From IMG/VR virus record IMGVR_UViG_3300011435_000032, positions 1 to 35,529 of that record: 35,529 nucleotides of DNA, one strand, 5' to 3'. Position numbers and translations under genes: made by a program. The DNA is from a virus. Its lineage: Duplodnaviria; Caudoviricetes. Below, piece after piece: positions 17,834-33,246 of the stretch (its first letter is position 1; the number at the start of each line of letters is the position of its first letter). The notes below the pieces were generated by a model. It was not told where the DNA came from, made no database searches, and worked only from the letters and a program-made list of their open reading frames with translations.

Positions 17834-19543
17834 CTAGCGGTACGATTCCTTGAACGCGGCGACCGCGAGGTTCACGCTCGCGTCGACACCCTGCGGCGCA
17901 CCGTCACCACGCGGCCCAGCCCCGCCCGCATTCAGCACGGCGGCTTCGCGCGTGATCGTGCGCTTGGCCTGCTTGATCTGCACGGGCCACGACGCCGGTT
18001 CGAGTTGCAACAGATCTTCGACCGACAGCACGTCGGACGGGATCTCGGCCTCCCTCAGCATCTTCGTCGCGGAGTCGCGCCGCTTGAACCCGCTGAGTTC
18101 CGCCTTCAGCCGGATGTTCTCGTTCAGAAGATTGCCCTTGTCCTTGTTGGCTTCCACGAATCGACCCTCCTTCCGCGCGATCTCGCGCTGCAACCTAGCG
18201 ACGGTCTGTGCCAGCACGCGCGCCGCATCTTCTTGTGCACGATCCGACTCGCTCGTGTTCACGAGCTTGTGCCCCTTCGGCGGCAGCACGTCGTTGGACT
18301 CGCCGCAATGCGCACACGCGTACCGCATCGCGGTCTCCGCTTCCGCCATCTCTGTTTCGGTCTCGGCCGTGATAGCGGTTTCCTTCCCCATCCCCGCATC
18401 CGCATCCGTTTCCTTCGACTCCTCCGTTTCCTCGGAGTCTTCCCCGCCAACGACACCCGCCGTTGCGTCCGCAACGGGCGTGGCATCGCCGGTCATGACG
18501 GCAGCTTCTTCGTCGTCGATCGAATGTGTGGACCCACCCAGCGCCATCGCATCCTCGGGGGCCACCGGCTCCTCGGCCGGCAACGCAGGAGGGTCGAGGG
18601 GCATGGCATCGGGGCCGATCGCTTCGCCCGTCGCGATGGCGGGCGCACCGCCCGTCTGAGAGAGCATGCCCGCGAGCAATTCCGTATCCGACTTCAGATC
18701 CGAAATCAGCGCGAGCACGCCGTCAGGATCGGGCGGCAACTTGGTCAGCATCTTCTGAATCTTCGCGACGGCATCCTTGATGGTGGCGGGAGCCTCCATT
18801 GGCGGCACGACGGCTTCACGCTTCGGTGTCGTGTCGCGAATCGGGGTCCGCACAACCGCTGCGGCCGAACCCTTTGCCTCTGCCATACCTTTCCCTCCGC
18901 TCGGTTCTGTCCGAACCGTATTCGACGCCCGGTGTCGAGCGTGCTGAGTCCGCCACTCAGCCATTCTCTCTGCCTCTTGCATCAGATTGACGAAGCGTCC
19001 GCCACGCGCCGGGCGCGTGACGATATCCGCACTGACGGCTTCTTGAATTTCTTTGACGAGGTTCACTTGCATGCCCTGAATCATGCCGGGCTCGGACACG
19101 CCCCCGCCGTTGATCGAGATGCCCGCGTACACACTCTTCGAGTTTGGGAACCGGCGCTGGTACTCCAACGCCGTCGCAACTTTCGCGCGCGCGATCTGGC
19201 CCGCGTCGGATTCATCGAAGCGCAGCGAGCCGAGGCACGCCACAAGCGTGTCACCCGTCACCGGATCTTTCACGGTGCCGCGTGCGGTGTCATAGAAGTA
19301 GCCGGCCAGGTCACGCACGGAACGTTCCGGGCGGTCGCCTTCTTCGGTCGCGGTCGGATGATCGATGAAGAATTGCTTGCCGTTGAACAGCGGCACGCAT
19401 GACTCGACGGCTTCGCGCGTGTAGTAGTTCCGATCGCGGAGGTTGCCGAGCCCTTCGGTGATGATGACGACGCGCGCGGCTCCATCCGGAGCGGTGCCCG
19501 CTTCTCGAATCGTGACGAAGGACGTGAACGGTGTCGGGGTCAT
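17834..19543 (-). CDS. Prohead maturation protease fused to scaffold
   Basis: N-terminal IITEG...YY..EA, FIDHP (His), AGISIN (Ser), SADIVTRPARGG (Asp); acidic linker, CxxC and C-terminal coiled coil. Confidence 0.85.
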   Translation of the reverse strand: MTPTPFTSFVTIREAGTAPDGAARVVIITEGLGNLRDRNYYTREAVESCVPLFNGKQFFIDHPTATEEGDRPERSVRDLAGYFYDTARGTVKDPVTGDTLVACLGSLRFDESDAGQIARAKVATALEYQRRFPNSKSVYAGISINGGGVSEPGMIQGMQVNLVKEIQEAVSADIVTRPARGGRFVNLMQEAERMAEWRTQHARHRASNTVRTEPSGGKGMAEAKGSAAAVVRTPIRDTTPKREAVVPPMEAPATIKDAVAKIQKMLTKLPPDPDGVLALISDLKSDTELLAGMLSQTGGAPAIATGEAIGPDAMPLDPPALPAEEPVAPEDAMALGGSTHSIDDEEAAVMTGDATPVADATAGVVGGEDSEETEESKETDADAGMGKETAITAETETEMAEAETAMRYACAHCGESNDVLPPKGHKLVNTSESDRAQEDAARVLAQTVARLQREIARKEGRFVEANKDKGNLLNENIRLKAELSGFKRRDSATKMLREAEIPSDVLSVEDLLQLEPASWPVQIKQAKRTITREAAVLNAGGAGPRGDGAPQGVDASVNLAVAAFKESYR

Positions 19544-22486: not shown

Positions 22487-22675
22487 TCATTGAACAACGG
22501 GGCGGTCGCCTTCATAGGGCGGGGATTGACGCAGCGCCTCGACCACATCGCGAACGTAGGACTCCGTTTCTTCGTCGAGTTCCCGTTCGAATTCCATGAT
22601 GGCTTCGGGCGGGATTTTCCCTTTCATTTCGGCATAGTGCATCTGAACCTCTAGCGGCATCTCCGTCCATTCCAT
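22487..22675 (-). CDS. Small acidic protein (candidate immunity/DNA-mimic partner of the upstream nuclease)
   Basis: 62 aa MEWTEMPLEVQ...EFERELDEETESY; AAGGA SD; starts 2 nt after the nuclease stop. Confidence 0.6.
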   Translation of the reverse strand: MEWTEMPLEVQMHYAEMKGKIPPEAIMEFERELDEETESYVRDVVEALRQSPPYEGDRPVVQ

Positions 22676-22677
22676 TG

Positions 22678-24533
22678 TCAGAATCCTTTGTAGACCAGCG
22701 ATTTCTTGTACCCGGTCTGCGCCTCGGGACTGTTCCAACCAATGCGCTTGTGCAGGCCCTCGAACTTGTAGATATCCGCGACGCCTGACGACAGGCTTTT
22801 CGCGTCAACCACCATCGTGATCGTCTCGAACGTCACCTTCCGGCCCAACACCCGCTCGATTTGTTGCTGCGCGAGTTGCTTGCGCGCGAAGATCCGGTCT
22901 TGCTTCAAGCCGCCGTAGCGGCGGCGGTCTTCCGCTGCGACGTGCTTGAAGGCTTCTTTCTCGCGGCGGTTCGGCTCACCTTGCGTGAGTCGCCATTGCT
23001 GCGCCTTCTTCGACGCCGCAATATCGCCGCCCTTCACTTCGACCACGCGCGAGTCATAGACGATATCGACCGGATAGTTGTTGCGGCCGCTCGGCTTGAT
23101 CGGGCGGGCGTCTTTGAATCCTTGCGAGCGAAGATACTCGATCGCGAGTCGTTCGGAGACAGCCTGCGTTTCGTTTTTCGTGAGCGTGACGCCGTGGCGC
23201 TTCGGCTCGCCTGTGAAGTTCTTCTTCGTGGTCGCGATTCGCACCGAACGAGCGGAGAACTTCTTCTCAAGCTCGACGCGTACCTGTTCGTCGGTGAACG
23301 TCGCATCTTTCGGCAGGGCCGGCGTCGACGCGCGCGAGACACGAGGTCGGATCGATCGCGCCGGCCCACTCCCGTTGCGGTCACTCACGTAGCCTTCGCC
23401 ACCACCATCACCGCCACCACCGGACGTGAATCGCCCGATGTCATCACGTGGGTGGAGGTCTTCGCTCCACTCTTCGCGGAGTGGAACAAGCTCGGCCCGG
23501 ACTAGAGGCGTCCGTCGCGCTTGGCCTGTTCCAGTTTGCGACGTGTCGATTCGAGATCTTCCGGGGTCGGTTCCCGGCCCCCCGTTGCGAGCTTGAAGGC
23601 GTGCACGATCGCGTCGAGGGTCAAGTCGCGCGGGTTGAGCATCGTCATGGACGGCTTCGCGTTTGGCATCGTTGGCTCCTTTGTCTTTGGGGACATTCTT
23701 GAACCACGCTTTTTGCGCCGGCACGTTTTCGGACTGGCCCGTCTTGAAGTTGAAGACGGCGAGTTGATGATGCTCACGGCCCATGCCGAAGGCTTCGTTC
23801 CGATCCTTCATGACGCCTGAGATGTCAAGGAATGCGTTGTTCGTGACCGGATCGTGCCACACGCCGAGATACGCGCGTTGATCTTCGCGCAGGAGATCGC
23901 CGTTGCGGAGCGCGTAGTCGAGCAGGTCTTCCGCTTTCAGTTTCGACACCGGGATCACCTGCTCTCGACCGGGATACATCGCGACGGCGTAACCCTCGTC
24001 ACCGATGTTGACGGCGTGATGCGAGAAAGGGTTGTACGTGAATCCGCTGTCAGGTTCCGCCACGCGCGCGAGCAGGGCGTCGAATTCAGCGGGGCGCAGA
24101 CCGCTGCGATCGATCTTCGTCAACGTCGCCGTGCTCGTACCCCCGCCACGATCCTTCGCGCCCGCCGAGGCACCGCTGTCAGATGCGCCACCGCCCCCGC
24201 CGCCTCCCGACGAGAACTTACCGTCGTCAGCACGCGGGTGCTTCTCTTCATCCCACTCTGACTCGACGAGCACGGCGCGCACCGGCTTCGGCAGCACGAC
24301 CACCGCGCGAAGATATGAACCAAAGTATTGATACGGCAACGCACGCAACCACGCCTCGGGCGTGTCCGTCGTGACACGCTTGCCCTTCACGAGCGGGCGA
24401 TCGGTGAGCACGTCGGCCGCGAGCGTCGGATTGCCGTGCGTGCGGATCGATCCGTCGACCCCACCGTTATCGAGCGTGAGCAGGACGTCTTGCCCGCCGT
24501 CTGGCCGCGTGCTCAGGAGTTGAACGGTGACCA

Positions 24534-24534
<1 letters not shown>
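22678..24534 (-). CDS. Multidomain putative capsid cargo protein: N-terminal module, tag, unknown alpha/beta domain, tag, PD-(D/E)xK nuclease
   Basis: Start MVTVQLL at 24534 (TAATG overlap); two W...HPR...GxF tags; C-terminal SERLAIEYL...YPVDIV...VVEVKGG restriction-endonuclease-fold motif. Confidence 0.75.
23502..23669 (-). CDS. Overprinted 55-aa protein nested out of frame in the linker of 22678..24534
   Basis: AAGGAG SD 7 nt before ATG; mostly G/C-ending codons; helical MPNAKPSMTMLNPRDLTLDAIVHAFKLATGGREPTPEDLESTRRKLEQAKRDGRL. Confidence 0.7.
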   Translation of the reverse strand: MPNAKPSMTMLNPRDLTLDAIVHAFKLATGGREPTPEDLESTRRKLEQAKRDGRL

Positions 24535-25665
<1,131 letters not shown>

Positions 25666-25682
<17 letters not shown>

Positions 25683-28600
25683 CACGCACCTTGGGGGCGA
25701 GCGTCGCGCGCACGGGCGAGCGCGTGGGCGTCTTCTTCTTGGCCGGCGTTGGCTTCGGCGTTGGCTTGGCTTCATACGGCGCACCCTTGCCGTACAACCA
25801 ATGCGGCCCTGCGTTCAAGTCGATCAGGTTCGCGTCGTCATCGTCCATGTCATCGTCCATGTCATCGTCCTCACGATCGTCTTCGGCTTCCGAGGCAGCG
25901 ATGCGCTGTTTCTCAAACGTCGGCGCGTTATGCGCAAAGGCGTCCCACTTTGTCCAACCCGAGCCCATCAACACGACTTCTTGTTCGTCGTGGACGTTCT
26001 GCCCGAAGACCGGGAGCGAGAACACAGCCGTGCGCGGCGCTTGCACGCGCAACACAACACGCTGCGCGCCTTTCGGGTGCACGCCAATGCCGCCCCACTC
26101 GTTTGCGACGCTGATCTTCGATGTAGCGGATTGTAGGGAGTCCCGTTCAAGTTTCAGATTCGGCAACGGCTCACCCGTCTTCGGCTTTGAATCGAGGACG
26201 CGCATGTCGCCCCGATAGACCACGACCTGCTCGGCCTTGGCCTTCGAGAGCACATACTGCGAGACTTCCCATTGCGCGCGCGCATACGCCTGCACATGGG
26301 CGAGATCGTATTCGTGCACCGTCACAGGCGGCCTGCCAGCGGCTTCGGGACGCACATCACGGGTGCGCGTATCGAATTCTTTCGCCACTGCCGTGCGCAA
26401 CAACACGCCGCCATTTGATGCCGGGGATTCTTTCCATCCGTCCCACAACCGACCGGCCAGCGTTTCGTAATCGCGGTCGTCAGCCAAGCCACGGTCTTTG
26501 AGGATTTGTCCGTAACGCTTCTCGGTCATGCGCGCAGCGAGGGCGTGCGTTGCGGTGTAGTCGTCGCCATCTTGGAACGGCTTCCATTCTTCCGGCTCGT
26601 GAATGACAACGGCTTTTTCACTCTGTTCCAGTTCGCTTAGATTTTCTTTCGCGTACTCGAACTTCTTGTCATCCTCCATCTGGCTCCAAAACTCTGACGC
26701 GGCTTCGGCGGCCTGCTCGTTCAACCACTCGGGAGGATTGTCGATCATCCGCTCACGGATCGCCTCTCGTTTCCCGTCCATCTTGTCTTTCATGAACGAC
26801 GTGAAGGAGTCCTTGACTTCGGCCCACCGTTCTTCCGACGTGCGGCGCAAGTTGTCGAGCGGAAGATCCAACTGCTCGGCGTCAGCCGGCGATCCCCATT
26901 TCAATTCATTGGAGTCCACGTCAACATCGTCGTCGGTGTCCTGAGGGCGATTGATGGCGTTGTAAAGCGATGCGTGGTCCAGGTCCAATCCGCTGTCATC
27001 GATGAATTCTGCGGCCCGGTCCTTCCACCACGCATCGTCATCACGCAATTCTTCGTGCACCGGCTCGTCGAGGTTCTCTGACCACGACTCATACTCAGAA
27101 TCGTAGAACTCACTTTGGTTGTTCTCGACCCACGTATCTTCGGCTTTAGCTTGTTGTTTACTCGACAACGCGTCCCACGCTTCAGGAGCATCGGAGACGT
27201 CGACTTCACCGCCCTCTTCCACGATCGCGTCTTTCAAACGATCGAGGTCTGGCTTGACCTTTTCGAAGTCGCGGAACATCTTCTCCGTGTTTTGCTTGCC
27301 CCATTCGTCGCGGGGCGTGTCACGCTCCGGGGACACAGCCCCGCCACCGCCTGTTGACGAGAATCGGCCGATATCGTCACGCGGGTGCTTCTCTTCGTCC
27401 CATTCTTCGAGGATGCGCGCCGTCGCGAGATGGGACGGCTGCACGAGCACGCGCGTGAGAAAGTAGCGTTCGTCTTCAGCGAGTTCGTCGAGCGTGACGA
27501 GGCTTGCGGCGTCGATTTCTTCGGGCGTCAGGATCGCCTGCGCGGCTCCGCGACGCTGCGCGAGCATGACCACGGTGTTCGACCACGGGCGATAGAGTGT
27601 CCCAAGCGTGCGCAGGATCGTGACGTCGAGCCCGGCTTCTTCGCGCATCTCTCGCTGTGCGGCCTGCGCATAACTCTCGGCCTTATCGACGTGTCCACCG
27701 GGCAGTGTCCAGAACGTGAGGCCACGCGGACGAACCGCCCACACGCGCCCCGAGGGTTCGAGACACGCGACGGCGACGCGCGTATACGGGGAGAGTCCGA
27801 CTTGCGGGCCAAAGCGTTCGCGCGCATAGAGCACTTGGCCCGTGGCGAAGTCCACGAGCATGTCGACGTCGTGCTCATCCACCACGGATTCATCGCCCAC
27901 CGCATCGGTGATCGGGACACGCGCGACGGCGAACACGAGCGATCCAATCGCGGTGCCTCGATTCAACATGTGTGAAACGAGATCGTCGAGCGCCGGCGCG
28001 ACCGGCCACGCGGCCAGATACTCCTGTCCGCGCGCAATCGTCGCCGCGTCGTCCTTCGTGATGAACGTGCCGGCGTATTGTTCGCCGAGGGCGCACGACG
28101 GAAACGTGACGGTGCGCAGACCGGGCCAACGTCCGATCAGGTATTGGGAGAGTCGCTTGCGCGGTTGGTTCCACGACGGGCCGTCTGGTGCGTCGAGGGC
28201 CACGCCACCGGGCACAGGTATCCACACACCGGGCGCGTCGAGGGCCAGCGTGTACCAGCCCTTCGCGCACGCGACGCTTAGGGTCGTGCCGTCCGAGGCG
28301 ATCAGCACGTGATCCGGCTGCGCGAGGGCGCGCGCCCGAGCGAGAATGCCGTGCCACTCAGGCGTGAGCGTGCCCACGAGCAACGCAGGCAGATCCGCCC
28401 ATGGGAGCGTGGCATACGAATGCGCACGGCGCGGCTTCACGCGCGAGAGGGCGGCGGGCATCATCGTTTCATCGCCCCACGCCCAACCCTCGCGGGCGGC
28501 TTCGCGGAGCGACTCCATCATCTCAGCACCACGACGCGAGTAGCCGTTTGCCTGCAACCACGCGGTGCCTTCGGCGCGGTATTCTTCGAGGTCCGTTTCG

Positions 28601-30258
28601 CCGGGGAAGACGGCCGGAATGCAGCGACAGTTTGATATCAGAAGGTTACTTGCTACAATCGTTCCATTACTCGACTGGAGGTCATACACGTGCCCCCGAA
28701 AATCCACATCAAGAATTTCGATGATCTGGTCCGGCAGTACAAGCTCGGGCACTCGCTGCATGAGTTGTCGCGCAAAGAAGGCATTGCGCAGCCCGTACTG
28801 GCTCGACACTTCTCGGATCGCGGTATCAAGATTCGAACACAATCCGAAGCTGCGAAACTCCGATGGAAGCTCGGTCGCAACGTCACGCCGTGCGTGACAG
28901 GCCGACTCTCCGGGGTCTCTGGCATCAAGAAGAGTCCCACGCACAAGGCTGCGATTGCCCGAAGTCGCATGCGAAATCTTCGGAGCAGCGTGGGAAGGTT
29001 CGAGCACGAGACGCTCAGACTGGCACGCACGATCCGTTCGGAGGCGACGCCGCAATTCGCTGTCGACAGTTACAATCTCGATATCGCCTTCCCCAAATCG
29101 CGCGTCGCCATCGAATTGCTCGTCAAACCTCCGCAGAGTCGTCGGGACTTCACCAGAACGCTTGAACGTCTCAAACACCTGCTCGATCGTGGTTGGTCTG
29201 TATTGTTCATTGTCTGGCGACCACTCGGCGCGCAGCGCGGACAAACCATCTTCGTCCCGGCCGCTATACGAAAGCAGATAGTCACCTTCTTTCAACTCAC
29301 CCGCGCGCTTCCACCCGGCCAAAGTCGGTATCGCGTGATTCGGGGTAACGGAGAGCGACTGACCGTGAGTAGTACGGATTTTCCGGATCTGCCCCGCGTA
29401 TAGCATGCGCATCGCAGCGTTGAATCGACCTTGAACGGGTGTGTCTCCCGCGACACAATTGTAGTGACGCGGCATTGATTCACCGAGTTCATTGAGTGCA
29501 CGCCCGTGTCGTGCAGCACATCCCGGCGTGGTCCGTTCATCAAGCGTGGCCCACCACACCAGCATTGCACCTTGTTCCTGAGCGATATCCTTCATGAGTC
29601 CTGCGAATTGCCGGCGCGCTTCATTGCGATAGATGTTGATCGCTTTACTAGCTGGGCCGCGCGGAGCTTTCAGTTTATCGACGCCGAATGCCTTGTAGAT
29701 CTTCTCGCGGGCGGTATCGAAGTCGTCGCCGTTCAAGAGCGACGAGCGCACCGTGCTCGTGACGTTCGTCTTCAGATCATCGCTCATGGCGAAGACGCGA
29801 TCGAAGAACGTGCCGCCACCGACCGTGCTGGTGGTCAAATCATTGAGCACGAGATTTTTCGCGGGCGGGATCTCATGCACCTGCGCGTCAAGCAGATTGC
29901 CGACCAGCTTGTTGACGACCGGGCGTTGCACGCTCAGAAGTTCCGCGAGACTATCGAGCGCCGTCGTGCCCACCGTCTCGGCGAGTTCCGACACCGTGCG
30001 CGTGATCGCATTGTCGAGGGCTTGGGCTCCCATCGTGGATCGGGCGCGCAGAAACGTGGTGTCGCGCCCGAGGAATTCGTCATACACGGAGCGCAACCGC
30101 TCGATCATCGTGCCGCGTGAATCTTGATAGAGACGGGCGAGGTCGAGGGCGTCGGTGTCGATACGACGCTCCACCCATTCGCGCGTTTTCTGTGCCGCGC
30201 GAACCAGCGACGCCTGAAGATCTTTCGGGGACGGGTCCGCCTCGCGGAGAACCACCAC
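25666..30258 (-). CDS. MuF/SPP1 gp7-like minor head protein with intein, Nudix hydrolase and C-terminal ADP-ribosyltransferase-like domain
   Basis: WWATLDERTTPGCAARHG...PRHYN/CRC MuF motif; Nudix box GGHVDKAESYAQAAQREMREEAGL (~27628-27699); ART R-S-E triad VYRG / QSATS / EQEVVL (~25970-26226). GTG 30258 directly follows the upstream stop. Confidence 0.88.
25837..25870. repeat. 12-nt tandem repeat (GTCATCGTCCAT x ~2.8) encoding DDDM
   Basis: Seen directly; forms the acidic tail after the ART domain. Confidence 0.85.
28632..28681 (+). promoter_or_regulatory. Antisense sigma70-like promoter and SD inside the intein
   Basis: TTGATA (28632-37), N16, TACAAT (28654-59) with extended TG; GGAGG at 28677-81, 8 nt before GTG 28690. 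Confidence 0.65.
28690..29403 (+). CDS. Antisense-encoded HTH + DUF559/Vsr-like endonuclease (putative homing endonuclease) inside the intein
   Basis: LVRQYKLGHSLHELSRKEGIAQPVLARHFSDRGIKIR (HTH), GIKKSPTHKAAIARSR (NUMOD3-like), FE...QFAVDSYNLDIAFPKSRVAIE...RLKHLLDRGWSVLFI (DUF559-like); own SD and promoter. Confidence 0.82.
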   Translation: MPPKIHIKNFDDLVRQYKLGHSLHELSRKEGIAQPVLARHFSDRGIKIRTQSEAAKLRWKLGRNVTPCVTGRLSGVSGIKKSPTHKAAIARSRMRNLRSSVGRFEHETLRLARTIRSEATPQFAVDSYNLDIAFPKSRVAIELLVKPPQSRRDFTRTLERLKHLLDRGWSVLFIVWRPLGAQRGQTIFVPAAIRKQIVTFFQLTRALPPGQSRYRVIRGNGERLTVSSTDFPDLPRV

Positions 30259-30259
30259 G

Positions 30260-30883
30260 CTAGCCGCGCGAGCGAAGATCCGCGCGAACCGGAGCGGAAA
30301 CCGGCTCGCGCCGCTGCGGCGTCGCAGGCGATGACGGCACACCTTGCGCGGAAGGTTTCCCTTGGGGCTCGGGCGGTTTTCCGCCCGGCGTCGCGTCCCA
30401 CGCGCCGCCCTTTCCCTGCGACGCATTCCATTCGAGCGGTGACGCGCCTCCTGTCGGCGCGCGCGGTTGCGGAGGCGGATTCACCGCCTTGTCGACCGCC
30501 GCCTGTACGTCAGGGCCGACGAGCGAACCCGTGAAGGAGTCTGCGAGCCCGAGGGGCGTCTTGGCGACGGTCGCCTGCTCGCGCTGAATCTGCGCGCGTT
30601 CGTCGTCGTAGTCGTAGGATTCGATCCCGAGTTCCTTCGCAATCTGCTCGGCCATGCGACGATGCGAGATCGTGTCGAGCCCTTGCGCCGCTGCGAGGTC
30701 TTTGATCTTGACCGTGCGGTCTTCTTCGTACACGGTCGGGAACACGATGTCGACTTGCATCTCGGAATCATCGGCGATCACTCGGCGCACATGCAGCAAC
30801 GGAGTCGGGGACCACGGAGCCGACACGTCAACGGCTTCGACGATGTGCCGTCGCATCCCTTCACGATAGCGTGGCGTGCTCAT
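30260..30883 (-). CDS. Portal protein C-terminal part encoded as a separate ORF
   Basis: VDIVFPTVYEED...ISHRRMAEQIAKELG...DYDDERAQIQRE is the typical portal crown pattern; ATGA overlap with the portal ORF stop. Confidence 0.7.
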   Translation of the reverse strand: MSTPRYREGMRRHIVEAVDVSAPWSPTPLLHVRRVIADDSEMQVDIVFPTVYEEDRTVKIKDLAAAQGLDTISHRRMAEQIAKELGIESYDYDDERAQIQREQATVAKTPLGLADSFTGSLVGPDVQAAVDKAVNPPPQPRAPTGGASPLEWNASQGKGGAWDATPGGKPPEPQGKPSAQGVPSSPATPQRREPVSAPVRADLRSRG

Positions 30884-32991
30884 TGGATCGGCTCCCGTTG
30901 AATGCGCATCGGTTCACGCAAAGGTGCGCCCGCGCGCGGCCCGTCGTCTTCATCCGGCACGAGTTCAGGGTCACCACGCACGGACGAGGGGCGGATGCGG
31001 CCCGCTTGCAGCGCCGCCGCAATCACGCGATCGTAGATGTCTTCGAGCGTTTCTCGCATGATCTGTTGCCGGTCTTCGACCGCTTTCACGGCCGGGTCCG
31101 TGCGCACGAGCGCCGTCGCCCGCGGTGCGCCGCCCGTCTCGATATTGAAATACTCGGCGGGCAGGTTGAGCGACGTGGCGACGATCGCGGCGATTTGCTG
31201 GCCGATGCCGCCGCTCCCACGATTGGCCGTCAACTGCGCCGACGACGGCGAGAGTTCGACGGACTCGTTCTCGATCCACACACCACCAGGCGGGGGCAAC
31301 TCCGTCATTGACGGATCGGTGAGAAACTTGTCGACGTCCGTCTGGTCACCGCGCACTTTGATCTTCCACACGAGGTTCGCTTCGAGTAGCGCCTTGACGG
31401 TCTGCCCATTGTAGAAGTCATTGAAGCGTTTCAGCCACGGCATCGACGGGAGGAGATCGCTGCGCCCGCGCTTCTCCTGCGACGATTCGTTGATCTTCAC
31501 GTGCACGATGTTCGTGGGCGGCACCTGCTGAATGATGTACTTCGACACGGGAATGTTGCCGCTCACCCACACCTGATACGGCGTCGGCCACTGAAAGTGA
31601 TAGTAGTAGACGCGCTCGATATCTTCAGGATCGGTCACCACTTCCCAACACGTGCTTGCGTCGAGATTGCGCAAGCCGATGTGGCCGGGGCGCGGTTCGT
31701 AGAATCGCAAGAGCAACTCACCCTGCCACATCAAGTCGCTCGTCATGTGGCGCAGCTTCCGCCGCATAGTTTCACGATCCCAGAACTCGTTCCAGATCTT
31801 GTGCGCCACGTTGTTCTTCACGTGAAAGGACAAACCGCGCCCGAGCACGAAGCGCGTCATGATCTTGTTGGCCGACGCGGCGAGCGCGTTGTGGTTCTTC
31901 AACTCAAATGAGTTATGCACGAAGACGCCTTGACCGACCGCGAAGTTGTGATGTTTCTCGACAGTCAGGTCGTACACGTCGGCACGACCGATCGATCGGA
32001 CGGAGACCACGCGATGATTCACAGCGCGCTTGAATCCTTTTCCAGTGACCACCACACCCGACTTGCGCCACTTCTCCACACGCGCCGCGCGTTCGTCTGG
32101 CGTGTACTCCATCGCCACTCGCTTGTGTGTCGGCTCCCACACCGACACGCACGGCTGATACACGTGCTCGTACCCCTTCACGGTCTTGCGATAGAGAGGC
32201 ATGAGCGAGTCGTCGGGGAGAAGTTTCTGCGCCTGACGGTAGGAGCCATCGCGCAGCATGAAGAGATGGTCAGGGGTGCACTCGATTGTTTCACCGTTGT
32301 CCAACAGCACTGAGACAAGTTCTTGATCGCGTCCGGTACGCTTCGCCCACTTCGCGAGACCAGGGACGACGCGGCCCTTGGCATCGCAGGAGTACACCCA
32401 GAAGTTTCGCCGCCGCTCATGTGCAAGTTGTTCGATCGTCACTGTCGTGCCGTCGAGCAGCGGGATCGGTGTCGATCCCACGAGACATCGCGCGTGCATT
32501 TGCAAGTAGTCGGTCAGGTAAAGCTGTTTGGAAAATGGGCCAGCAAGCGTCGGCACGAATTCGTGGTCGATCAGATGCGTCGCACTGCGGCCATACGTCT
32601 CGCCCGTATCGAAGTCGTCGCCGCTTTCGAGGAACCGCTTGTGCTGCCCACGATCGGACTCGAAGAACGCGCGCAAGTCACGCACACTCGTGATGACGCG
32701 CGGTCGCCAGCGTTCTGATTCACGGATCGGTTCGAGCATCACCGCGCGCAGGCCCGGATGGACCTTCACGCCCGCTTCGGTGGTGATCGTGTCGCGGACG
32801 TTGAATCGCTTGACGTATTCCTCGACGGGCACGCGGAAGGACGCCGCATTGAAGTCGGCGTCAGGGTCATAGGGCGGGGCGGGTCGCGAGCCGGCTGTCG
32901 GACGGGCCACCCGAGGACGGGCCACGTCGACCAGTTCATCCCCGACGTGCGCATGCCCGTTCGTCCCGAGAGTAATCGGCTGTCGCGCCAT
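30880..32991 (-). CDS. Portal protein (intein-containing), N-terminal/main part
   Basis: Follows terL; FVLGRG, WNEFW, GELLL, IVHVKIN...KRGRSDL, NLPAEYF portal motifs; ATG 32991 with GGAGG SD. Confidence 0.88.
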   Translation of the reverse strand: MARQPITLGTNGHAHVGDELVDVARPRVARPTAGSRPAPPYDPDADFNAASFRVPVEEYVKRFNVRDTITTEAGVKVHPGLRAVMLEPIRESERWRPRVITSVRDLRAFFESDRGQHKRFLESGDDFDTGETYGRSATHLIDHEFVPTLAGPFSKQLYLTDYLQMHARCLVGSTPIPLLDGTTVTIEQLAHERRRNFWVYSCDAKGRVVPGLAKWAKRTGRDQELVSVLLDNGETIECTPDHLFMLRDGSYRQAQKLLPDDSLMPLYRKTVKGYEHVYQPCVSVWEPTHKRVAMEYTPDERAARVEKWRKSGVVVTGKGFKRAVNHRVVSVRSIGRADVYDLTVEKHHNFAVGQGVFVHNSFELKNHNALAASANKIMTRFVLGRGLSFHVKNNVAHKIWNEFWDRETMRRKLRHMTSDLMWQGELLLRFYEPRPGHIGLRNLDASTCWEVVTDPEDIERVYYYHFQWPTPYQVWVSGNIPVSKYIIQQVPPTNIVHVKINESSQEKRGRSDLLPSMPWLKRFNDFYNGQTVKALLEANLVWKIKVRGDQTDVDKFLTDPSMTELPPPGGVWIENESVELSPSSAQLTANRGSGGIGQQIAAIVATSLNLPAEYFNIETGGAPRATALVRTDPAVKAVEDRQQIMRETLEDIYDRVIAAALQAGRIRPSSVRGDPELVPDEDDGPRAGAPLREPMRIQREPIQ
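31912..32487 (-). mobile_element. Mini-intein (192 aa) in portal with remnant of an HNH endonuclease
   Basis: C1 CLVGSTPI, block B ECTPDHLF, block F DVYDLTV, terminal HN followed by Ser+1; short insert KGYEHV...WEPTHKRVA. Confidence 0.93.
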
Positions 32992-33246
32992 GGAGCCCTC
33001 CCTATGGCCGTGCATCATCGCCGATCTCACAGGACCATTGCAAGTTTTGACGGAAGCGCGCCGAGCGTGGGGTCAGCAAAGCCGGCATCACGGCCCGCAC
33101 GAGCCCACTGGCAAACCCTCTGCCCGCCGTCGCTCGTGCCGATCAGCGGAGCGCGCTGCCACCTATTGCCGGGTTACATACGGGCCTCCTGACGTCTCAC
33201 GTGCACAGCACCCGGCCAGGACACTACGGCATTCGCGGCCGGCGTG

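Follow-up and report, generated by a model that had tools for sequence, protein, structure and literature searches.

Several described systems come close to the arrangement reported here. In MuF polymorphic toxins, variable cargo is encoded in a head-module gene and is followed by a small immunity ORF, and delivery by the capsid has been proposed (Jamet et al. 2017, PMC5576092). Phage polyvalent proteins unite numerous unrelated domains within a single head-associated chain (Iyer et al. 2017, PMC5512222; also PMC9503650). Linker frames that run over an older gene are described for the polymerase spacer of hepatitis B virus (HBV) and for the linker/movement-protein overlap in apple stem grooving virus (ASGV) (PMC8227390). 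In the engineered OAFI design an inner gene with its own ribosome-binding site is placed in a tolerant outer region, the outer-frame stops are cleared and both products are functional (10.1101/2024.11.07.622342). Furthermore, the MuF-like gene 20 of mycobacteriophage Patience contains an out-of-frame ORF of 171 bp and 56 codons, which is supported by MS peptides and reported as not conserved (PMC4324244). The main text of the polyvalent-protein paper (PMC5512222) contains neither ‘overlap’ nor ‘linker’, and no nested partner genes were seen in it. Subscription papers and supplements aside, the literature gave us no account of conserved cognate partner genes that lie nested within the cargo linkers of phages. 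MuF cargo with partner ORFs behind it, polyvalent proteins, linker overlaps, OAFI and the Patience ORF are thus known, and a conserved partner nested in a cargo linker is what we consider new.

The whole stretch of DNA analysed, 35.5 kb in length and from an uncultured phage, is called the window here; its long genes all lie on the minus strand, as do all its features given below. A portal gene with an intein and a MuF gene together span 25666–33030. The MuF ORF (25666–30426, true start not settled) contains an intein, a Nudix domain and a tagged C-terminal module. The next gene (24534–25682) encodes a tag and a PI3/PI4-kinase-like domain, and its stop overlaps (TAATG) the start of the host ORF of this study (22678–24534), a chain of 618 residues with two tagged cargo modules. 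The tag, WxExxHPRxxxGxF, is encoded by a 71-nt repeat that occurs four times ahead of cargo domains. The host chain begins with an 81-residue segment (24292–24534), followed by tag 1 (WDEEKHPRADDGKF, 24214–24255), cargo domain 1 (129 residues, 23722–24108), a linker, tag 2 (WSEDLHPRDDIGRF, 23428–23469) and cargo domain 2 (22681–23250); both tags are preceded by a glutamate. Domain 1 belongs to an alpha/beta phage family with the pattern GFTY...GxWHD...LDxS...QxAxF. Library searches with domain 2 gave no meaningful match, and a motif recognised by eye suggests that it may be PD-(D/E)xK nuclease-like. Directly after it lies an acidic gene of 62 residues (22487–22675), a candidate partner kept as a separate gene, for which the family search gave no match. 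The window also contains a head maturation protease/scaffold gene (17834–19543; PHROG head maturation protease, E 2.8e-6), a major capsid protein gene and what are presumably terminase and tail genes, likely assignments made by eye.

Like polyvalent proteins, the host ORF joins at least two unrelated domains in one chain and is encoded in the head module, and related loci have matches to ART-PolyVal, RelA/SpoT, 2H, kinase and topoisomerase IB domains. The residue before the cargo tag (window and L057–L073) is nearly constant within a genome and varies between genomes (E, D, K, N), and this pattern is what a cut site of the head protease would be expected to show. The enzyme cutting before the tags is likely the head maturation protease. 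From the gene position and the constant residue before the tag, we infer that the host chain would be packaged into the virion and processed. A count of the candidate cut motif [LIVM]RE[AES] was thin, had an out-of-frame row for the kinase and is not used as evidence. With MuF toxins the locus shares a head-module gene, a cargo domain and a small ORF after the cargo. In the MuF toxins described in PMC5576092 the toxin is C-terminal with the small ORF downstream, whereas here the cargo is internal and the small gene lies inside the ORF in the +1 frame. Also unlike them, the 618-residue host has no MuF domain of its own (a MuF search of it gave no match, and MuF sits two genes upstream; the related locus L068 does have one), and toxicity of domain 1 is putative.

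The 81-residue N-terminal segment is, from sequence comparison, likely the partner of the kinase fused to the next cargo; its match to the small gene after the kinase domain in L057 and L058 is weak (hhalign probability 16, E 0.0016, 24 columns). Between 22487 and 25900 four cargo junctions show four apparent ways of keeping a partner: an in-frame acidic tail at the MuF end, fusion of the kinase partner to the N-terminus of the next cargo, nesting, and a separate gene (22675–22487). At the end of the kinase gene, a 6-nt tandem repeat (24647–24694) encodes a PTPT linker.

The nested gene (23502–23669) encodes 55 residues, is in +1 relative to the host ORF and lies wholly within it, with a start signal of its own. 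A sequence-only reading of the window had claimed a strong AAGGAG, an ATG and 55 codons mostly ending in G or C within a stop-free, filler-like host frame, placed between the end of the first cargo domain and the next tag. All of this is present. The Shine–Dalgarno sequence (23676–23681) stands 6 nt before the ATG at 23669 and the ORF ends with TAG (23504–23502). Domain 1 ends about 17 codons before the ATG, and tag 2 begins at 23469, 11 codons past the nested stop. G or C ends 44 of the 55 nested codons versus 26 of 55 host-frame codons over the same bases (0.73 for the whole host ORF). The host-frame linker (23500–23667) is open, polar and poorly conserved, reads as quoted in the earlier note, and has 15% large hydrophobic residues; from the nested start up to the tag its frame has no ATG, GTG or TTG. 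The same reading had described an amphipathic helical peptide, and this part was not borne out: a low-confidence model of a fused relative gives a strand followed by two helices and not one helix. At 23573–23584 a six-G run adds one glycine to the conserved TGRE motif, an in-frame insertion after which both frames stay open.

ORFs of this length are common in shifted frames of the GC-rich window, and word-based searches with the peptide, with alignment A1 or with domain 1 confirmed nothing, so that HMMER and motif scans were needed. The frequency of such ORFs and the empty word-based searches with the peptide would fit a chance shadow of the host gene. As a control we used the shifted frames of seven long window genes, leaving out seven rows from an out-of-frame slice of the kinase gene. 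Among 46 ATG starts of shifted-frame ORFs of at least 45 residues, only that of the nested ORF has a strong Shine–Dalgarno sequence (AGGAG/GGAGG), and in this comparison the G/C contrast at third positions is reversed in the nested ORF only. The X1 contig spans 23461–24676, and pieces from X2 and X3 cover 23541–23691, 23448–23612 and 23664–23866, all with 0 differences and 0 gaps against the window. No assembly slip is seen, since contigs of three runs match without an indel; these runs share habitat and year, perhaps belong to one campaign, and X1 is possibly the source run. No RNA data set is listed as a holder of the sequence. A chance shadow or an assembly artefact is contradicted by the difference-free contigs and also by the stand-alone relatives, the conserved position and the codon-position pattern described below, and we regard it as hardly credible. 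The nested ORF is almost certainly a real gene.

A full HMMER scan of 1.84 billion representatives with the peptide gave nine matches. Five are stand-alone small proteins of 50–84 residues with 44–52% identity (E 6e-5 to 3.6e-4) and the same start region; the other four, long repeat proteins, were dropped. A profile search identified 26 family proteins among 500 candidates, and motif scans gave 7 viral and 47 metagenome loci; 30 profile matches of at least 30 bits were found among 57 loci. The family (KPxLxL...FxxLTGREPTPEE) is unnamed: Pfam and NCBIfam have no family at a meaningful score for the peptide or for domain 1, and the Atlas gave nothing usable for the peptide and places domain 1 in unnamed viral clusters. 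The Patience ORF, a small out-of-frame ORF within a MuF-like phage gene (PMC4324244), was considered as a relative and ruled out. It has no match to the family, uses the +2 frame and sits early in a short MuF gene.

Several of the small-gene loci have the gene immediately after a homologue of domain 1. A reverse search from the domain returned 25 loci, or 22 once three near-copies were dropped. The sequence-only reading had suggested that the peptide might occur as a stand-alone gene behind homologues of the upstream domain. At 14 of the 22 distinct loci the small gene does lie directly behind the domain 1 homologue (11 of 19 if the three seed contigs of the search are left out), by a linkage profile built without the domain loci, with two of the matches weak at about 20 bits. 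In the window and in these 14 loci an ORF of less than 150 residues thus stands right after the cargo domain, as in MuF pairs. The small gene is missing in the other eight loci, one of which ends about 100 nt past the domain, and also in three GenBank phages with distant domains; 11 loci with at least 400 nt upstream have the small gene without the domain. As judged by their co-occurrence, domain 1 and the small gene appear to travel as one cassette. In one contig without a cargo domain nearby, the small gene stands alone in three tandem copies (L024, 1280–1925).

Both parts are found at 18 distinct loci, of which 11 are nested (the window, L057, L058, L059, L060, L066, L068, L071, L072, L073, and L045 with L036 as one locus) and seven have the domain last. 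With the domain internal, the small gene is in the +1 frame in 11 of 11 cases, and the host frame runs on into a tag or a MuF-like region. With the domain last, it is in +2 in five of seven, four of them with an ATGA or GTGA overlap; in L013 it is in +1 and the host ends 21 codons in. In L065 (2986–3534) domain and peptide form a natural in-frame fusion. Frame and position are associated (Fisher p 4e-4), a value to be read with the loci being related, not independent, and the nested class being partly defined by openness. When read-through of the coupled geometry is simulated, no more than 3% of shuffles of the terminal copies get through, so nesting needs a one-base frame change and not mere stop loss. 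The nested frame likewise differs from that of most terminal copies, and therefore stop loss alone does not give nesting. The modules downstream of nested loci vary (topoisomerase IB, RelA/SpoT, zeta-like kinase, ART-PolyVal, MuF). The earlier suggestion of a single fusion of two effector cassettes does not hold as a one-off event, as the nested layout recurs in ten other phage contigs with these varied downstream modules.

In a tree of the domain the nested state needs 4–6 changes, and under an AU test one clade uniting the nested copies is rejected (p 0.022), with the trees being poorly supported (2 and 0 starred branches). Repeated switching between nested and other states is likely. Two further short reading frames were noted in these loci. 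In L076 (3300–4239) the domain is followed by another short segment, which begins at a TGATG overlap and continues into the next cargo as a fusion; it has no match to the peptide profile. In the L066 host ORF (2–2783), a possible nested ORF of 35–45 residues lies near codon 59; it has an SD-like word, and its codon score is barely positive.

Selection was analysed on ten nested copies; L072, which has no clear start, was left out. Base identity by codon position of the small gene is 0.51/0.64/0.36, and the small frame has 40% amino-acid identity, the host frame 20%. Conservation in favour of the host frame, named in advance as a finding that would speak against the nested gene, is thus not what is seen; the opposite is. 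At third positions where a T would make a stop in the host frame, nested copies have T in 0 of 116 sites. Terminal copies have it at 4 of 78 (p 0.025), stand-alone copies at 12 of 195 (p 0.004) and host genes at 279 of 1499. Terminal and stand-alone copies are the fair comparisons; they also avoid T there, so that our first null for frame openness overstated the effect and was discarded. An older or better conserved inner gene under a fast-changing outer linker that joins two domains is common to the HBV and ASGV overlaps (PMC8227390) and to this locus. Those are fixed single overlaps in eukaryotic viruses, whereas here a mobile cassette of tailed phages is found nested, coupled or fused.

The same comparison bears on whether the host reads through the small gene by accident, with the downstream module being a separate gene or not made at all. 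By chance, 13 of 20 stand-alone copies have this frame open, so openness alone counts for little, and in three of ten nested copies a GTG or TTG before the next tag could serve as a start. Against an accident, the next module is in the frame of the domain in all 11 internal cases and seven of the ten nested copies have no start codon before it. In L068 a MuF domain stands behind two nested genes in one ORF and depends on read-through. We consider accidental read-through very improbable; the outer frame appears to be maintained and needed, chance openness being the caveat.

A programmed frameshift could also join the frames, from the domain into the peptide or from the peptide into the next cargo. 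The L065 fusion shows that domain and peptide can exist as one chain, a G-GGG-GGC stands at codon 30 of the window's nested gene, and the engineered nested gene described in 10.1101/2024.11.07.622342 yielded a minor frameshift product. A slippery heptamer is however present in only two of ten nested copies and at different places. SD-like words precede eight of the ten (that of L036 read from the overlapping L045; none in the other two), homology begins at the ATG, and the host frame requires no shift. A frameshift is therefore improbable, though slightly less so than accidental read-through, and separate initiation of the small gene is preferred.

Domain 1 alone gives a complete and confident model (pLDDT 94.9). 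Among predicted viral proteins, 22 match its structure at E 0.001 or better, none of which names a function, and its PHROG matches are of unknown function. Sequence and fold searches of the PDB gave no confident match (best Z 4.5), which is not proof of a new fold, and the domain could already stand in the supplementary domain lists of PMC5512222. Residues 34–129 have a strand and helix order like that of the phage SAM lyases (T3 gene 0.3 and Svi3-3), with W84 and D95 spaced like Y58 and E69 of Svi3-3 (PMC7877911). The scores are at background level: Z 2.9 and rmsd 5.5 over 85 residues aligned to 7ock_L, a hhalign probability of 0.2 against the single T3 SAM lyase sequence, Foldseek E 0.93 against 6zm9, and E 0.09 against a DUF3293 model. 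A SAM lyase is a weak lead only.

A multimer prediction, proposed together with the first description of the ORF, yields a complex of domain 1 and the peptide with a score of 0.79, compared with 0.19 for the best of three controls. The mark used for complex scores is reached by 116 of 157 solved pairs and 2 of 215 mismatched pairs. Contact agreement between runs is at least 91% and the pLDDT of the partner at least 82. In the predicted interface the peptide touches the domain helix 57–70 and the strand with the invariant G82 and W84; the near-invariant D95 and the invariant Q115 are outside the listed contacts. The predicted interface includes residues 57–63 and 81–84 of the domain and 9–11, 21–25 and 38–46 of the peptide. 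A single-sequence model of the L065 fusion (pLDDT 45) is too poor for contacts. The term partner gene is thus supported, by stand-alone homologues, linkage at 14 of 22 loci, conservation of the nested frame and a predicted complex. The nested peptide is probably a binding partner of domain 1, and it may well be its inhibitor, an immunity role that we consider somewhat more likely than not.

The same gene and the same binding would also be expected if the peptide was an activator, a folding helper or a structural subunit. The L065 in-frame fusion could reflect a lasting subunit just as well as an inhibitor, and the predicted pairing of the peptide strand with the sheet of the domain is in line with a helper or subunit. 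In addition, domain 1 has no known toxic activity and eight of the 22 domain loci lack the small gene. Against this reading, the domain models completely on its own. Other cargo domains too have their own small downstream genes (the kinase, and the zeta-like domains in 42 of 66 loci), and a small gene downstream of cargo is the pattern of the MuF toxin–immunity pairs described in PMC5576092. We consider such an activator, helper or subunit role, the main rival, rather unlikely, although a good deal less so than a frameshift.

The reading that we favour, with some reserve, is a conserved nested gene whose product is predicted to bind the cargo domain just upstream and would hold it inactive while the producing cell assembles the phage. 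If nothing stands behind the domain in its protein, the small gene follows as an ordinary coupled gene. When modules are added behind the domain, the host frame must cross the small gene, and it would do so in the one frame able to stay free of stops, leaving a linker that can be discarded. Translation probably uses both frames, with the small protein starting from its own Shine–Dalgarno sequence and simple read-through giving the downstream module. The head protease would cut just ahead of each tag, which likely makes the linker tolerable, and the inhibitor would be made beside its target and left out of the packaged chain. OAFI is synthetic (10.1101/2024.11.07.622342), and the nested phage gene looks like its natural and recurrent counterpart.

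When 60 nested ORFs in 19 tagged hosts were ranked by codon score, four members of this small-gene family took ranks 1–4. Rank 5 is an ORF of 56 residues behind the zeta-like domain of L068 (2897–3064, plus strand), in the +1 frame with a strong Shine–Dalgarno sequence and a GC3 of 0.84 versus 0.36. An iterated profile assigns it to a family without a name that follows zeta-like domains in 42 of 66 distinct viral loci, where the gene is almost always separate or fused. No nested partner was found in other long hosts of the zeta-like domain, and tblastn of the L066 and L068 small proteins against GenBank phages gave no match. This second, unrelated family can thus nest but does so rarely, as nesting is confined to L068, one of the 42 partner-bearing loci. 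That tailed phages repeatedly use a general device, in which a disposable linker carries in its +1 frame the inhibitor gene for an internal cargo, is possible and put forward tentatively.

Among 15 billion called proteins, none of the seven nested copies looked up was present compared with four of four terminal copies, and the exact 618-residue host protein is there. This is a systematic blind spot of annotation. If the device is general, gene callers miss the nested genes, linkers of polyvalent proteins would hold unannotated effector inhibitors, and each hidden inhibitor would point to the activity of its upstream domain. The small predicted binder is itself a handle for finding the activity of a widespread phage domain. 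One gene pair that occurs nested, coupled or fused forms a natural series for studying how overlaps originate. For the phages, nesting would be a concrete route by which toxin–partner cassettes may be stacked in one protein with the partner kept, which would fill a gap in the account of polyvalent proteins.
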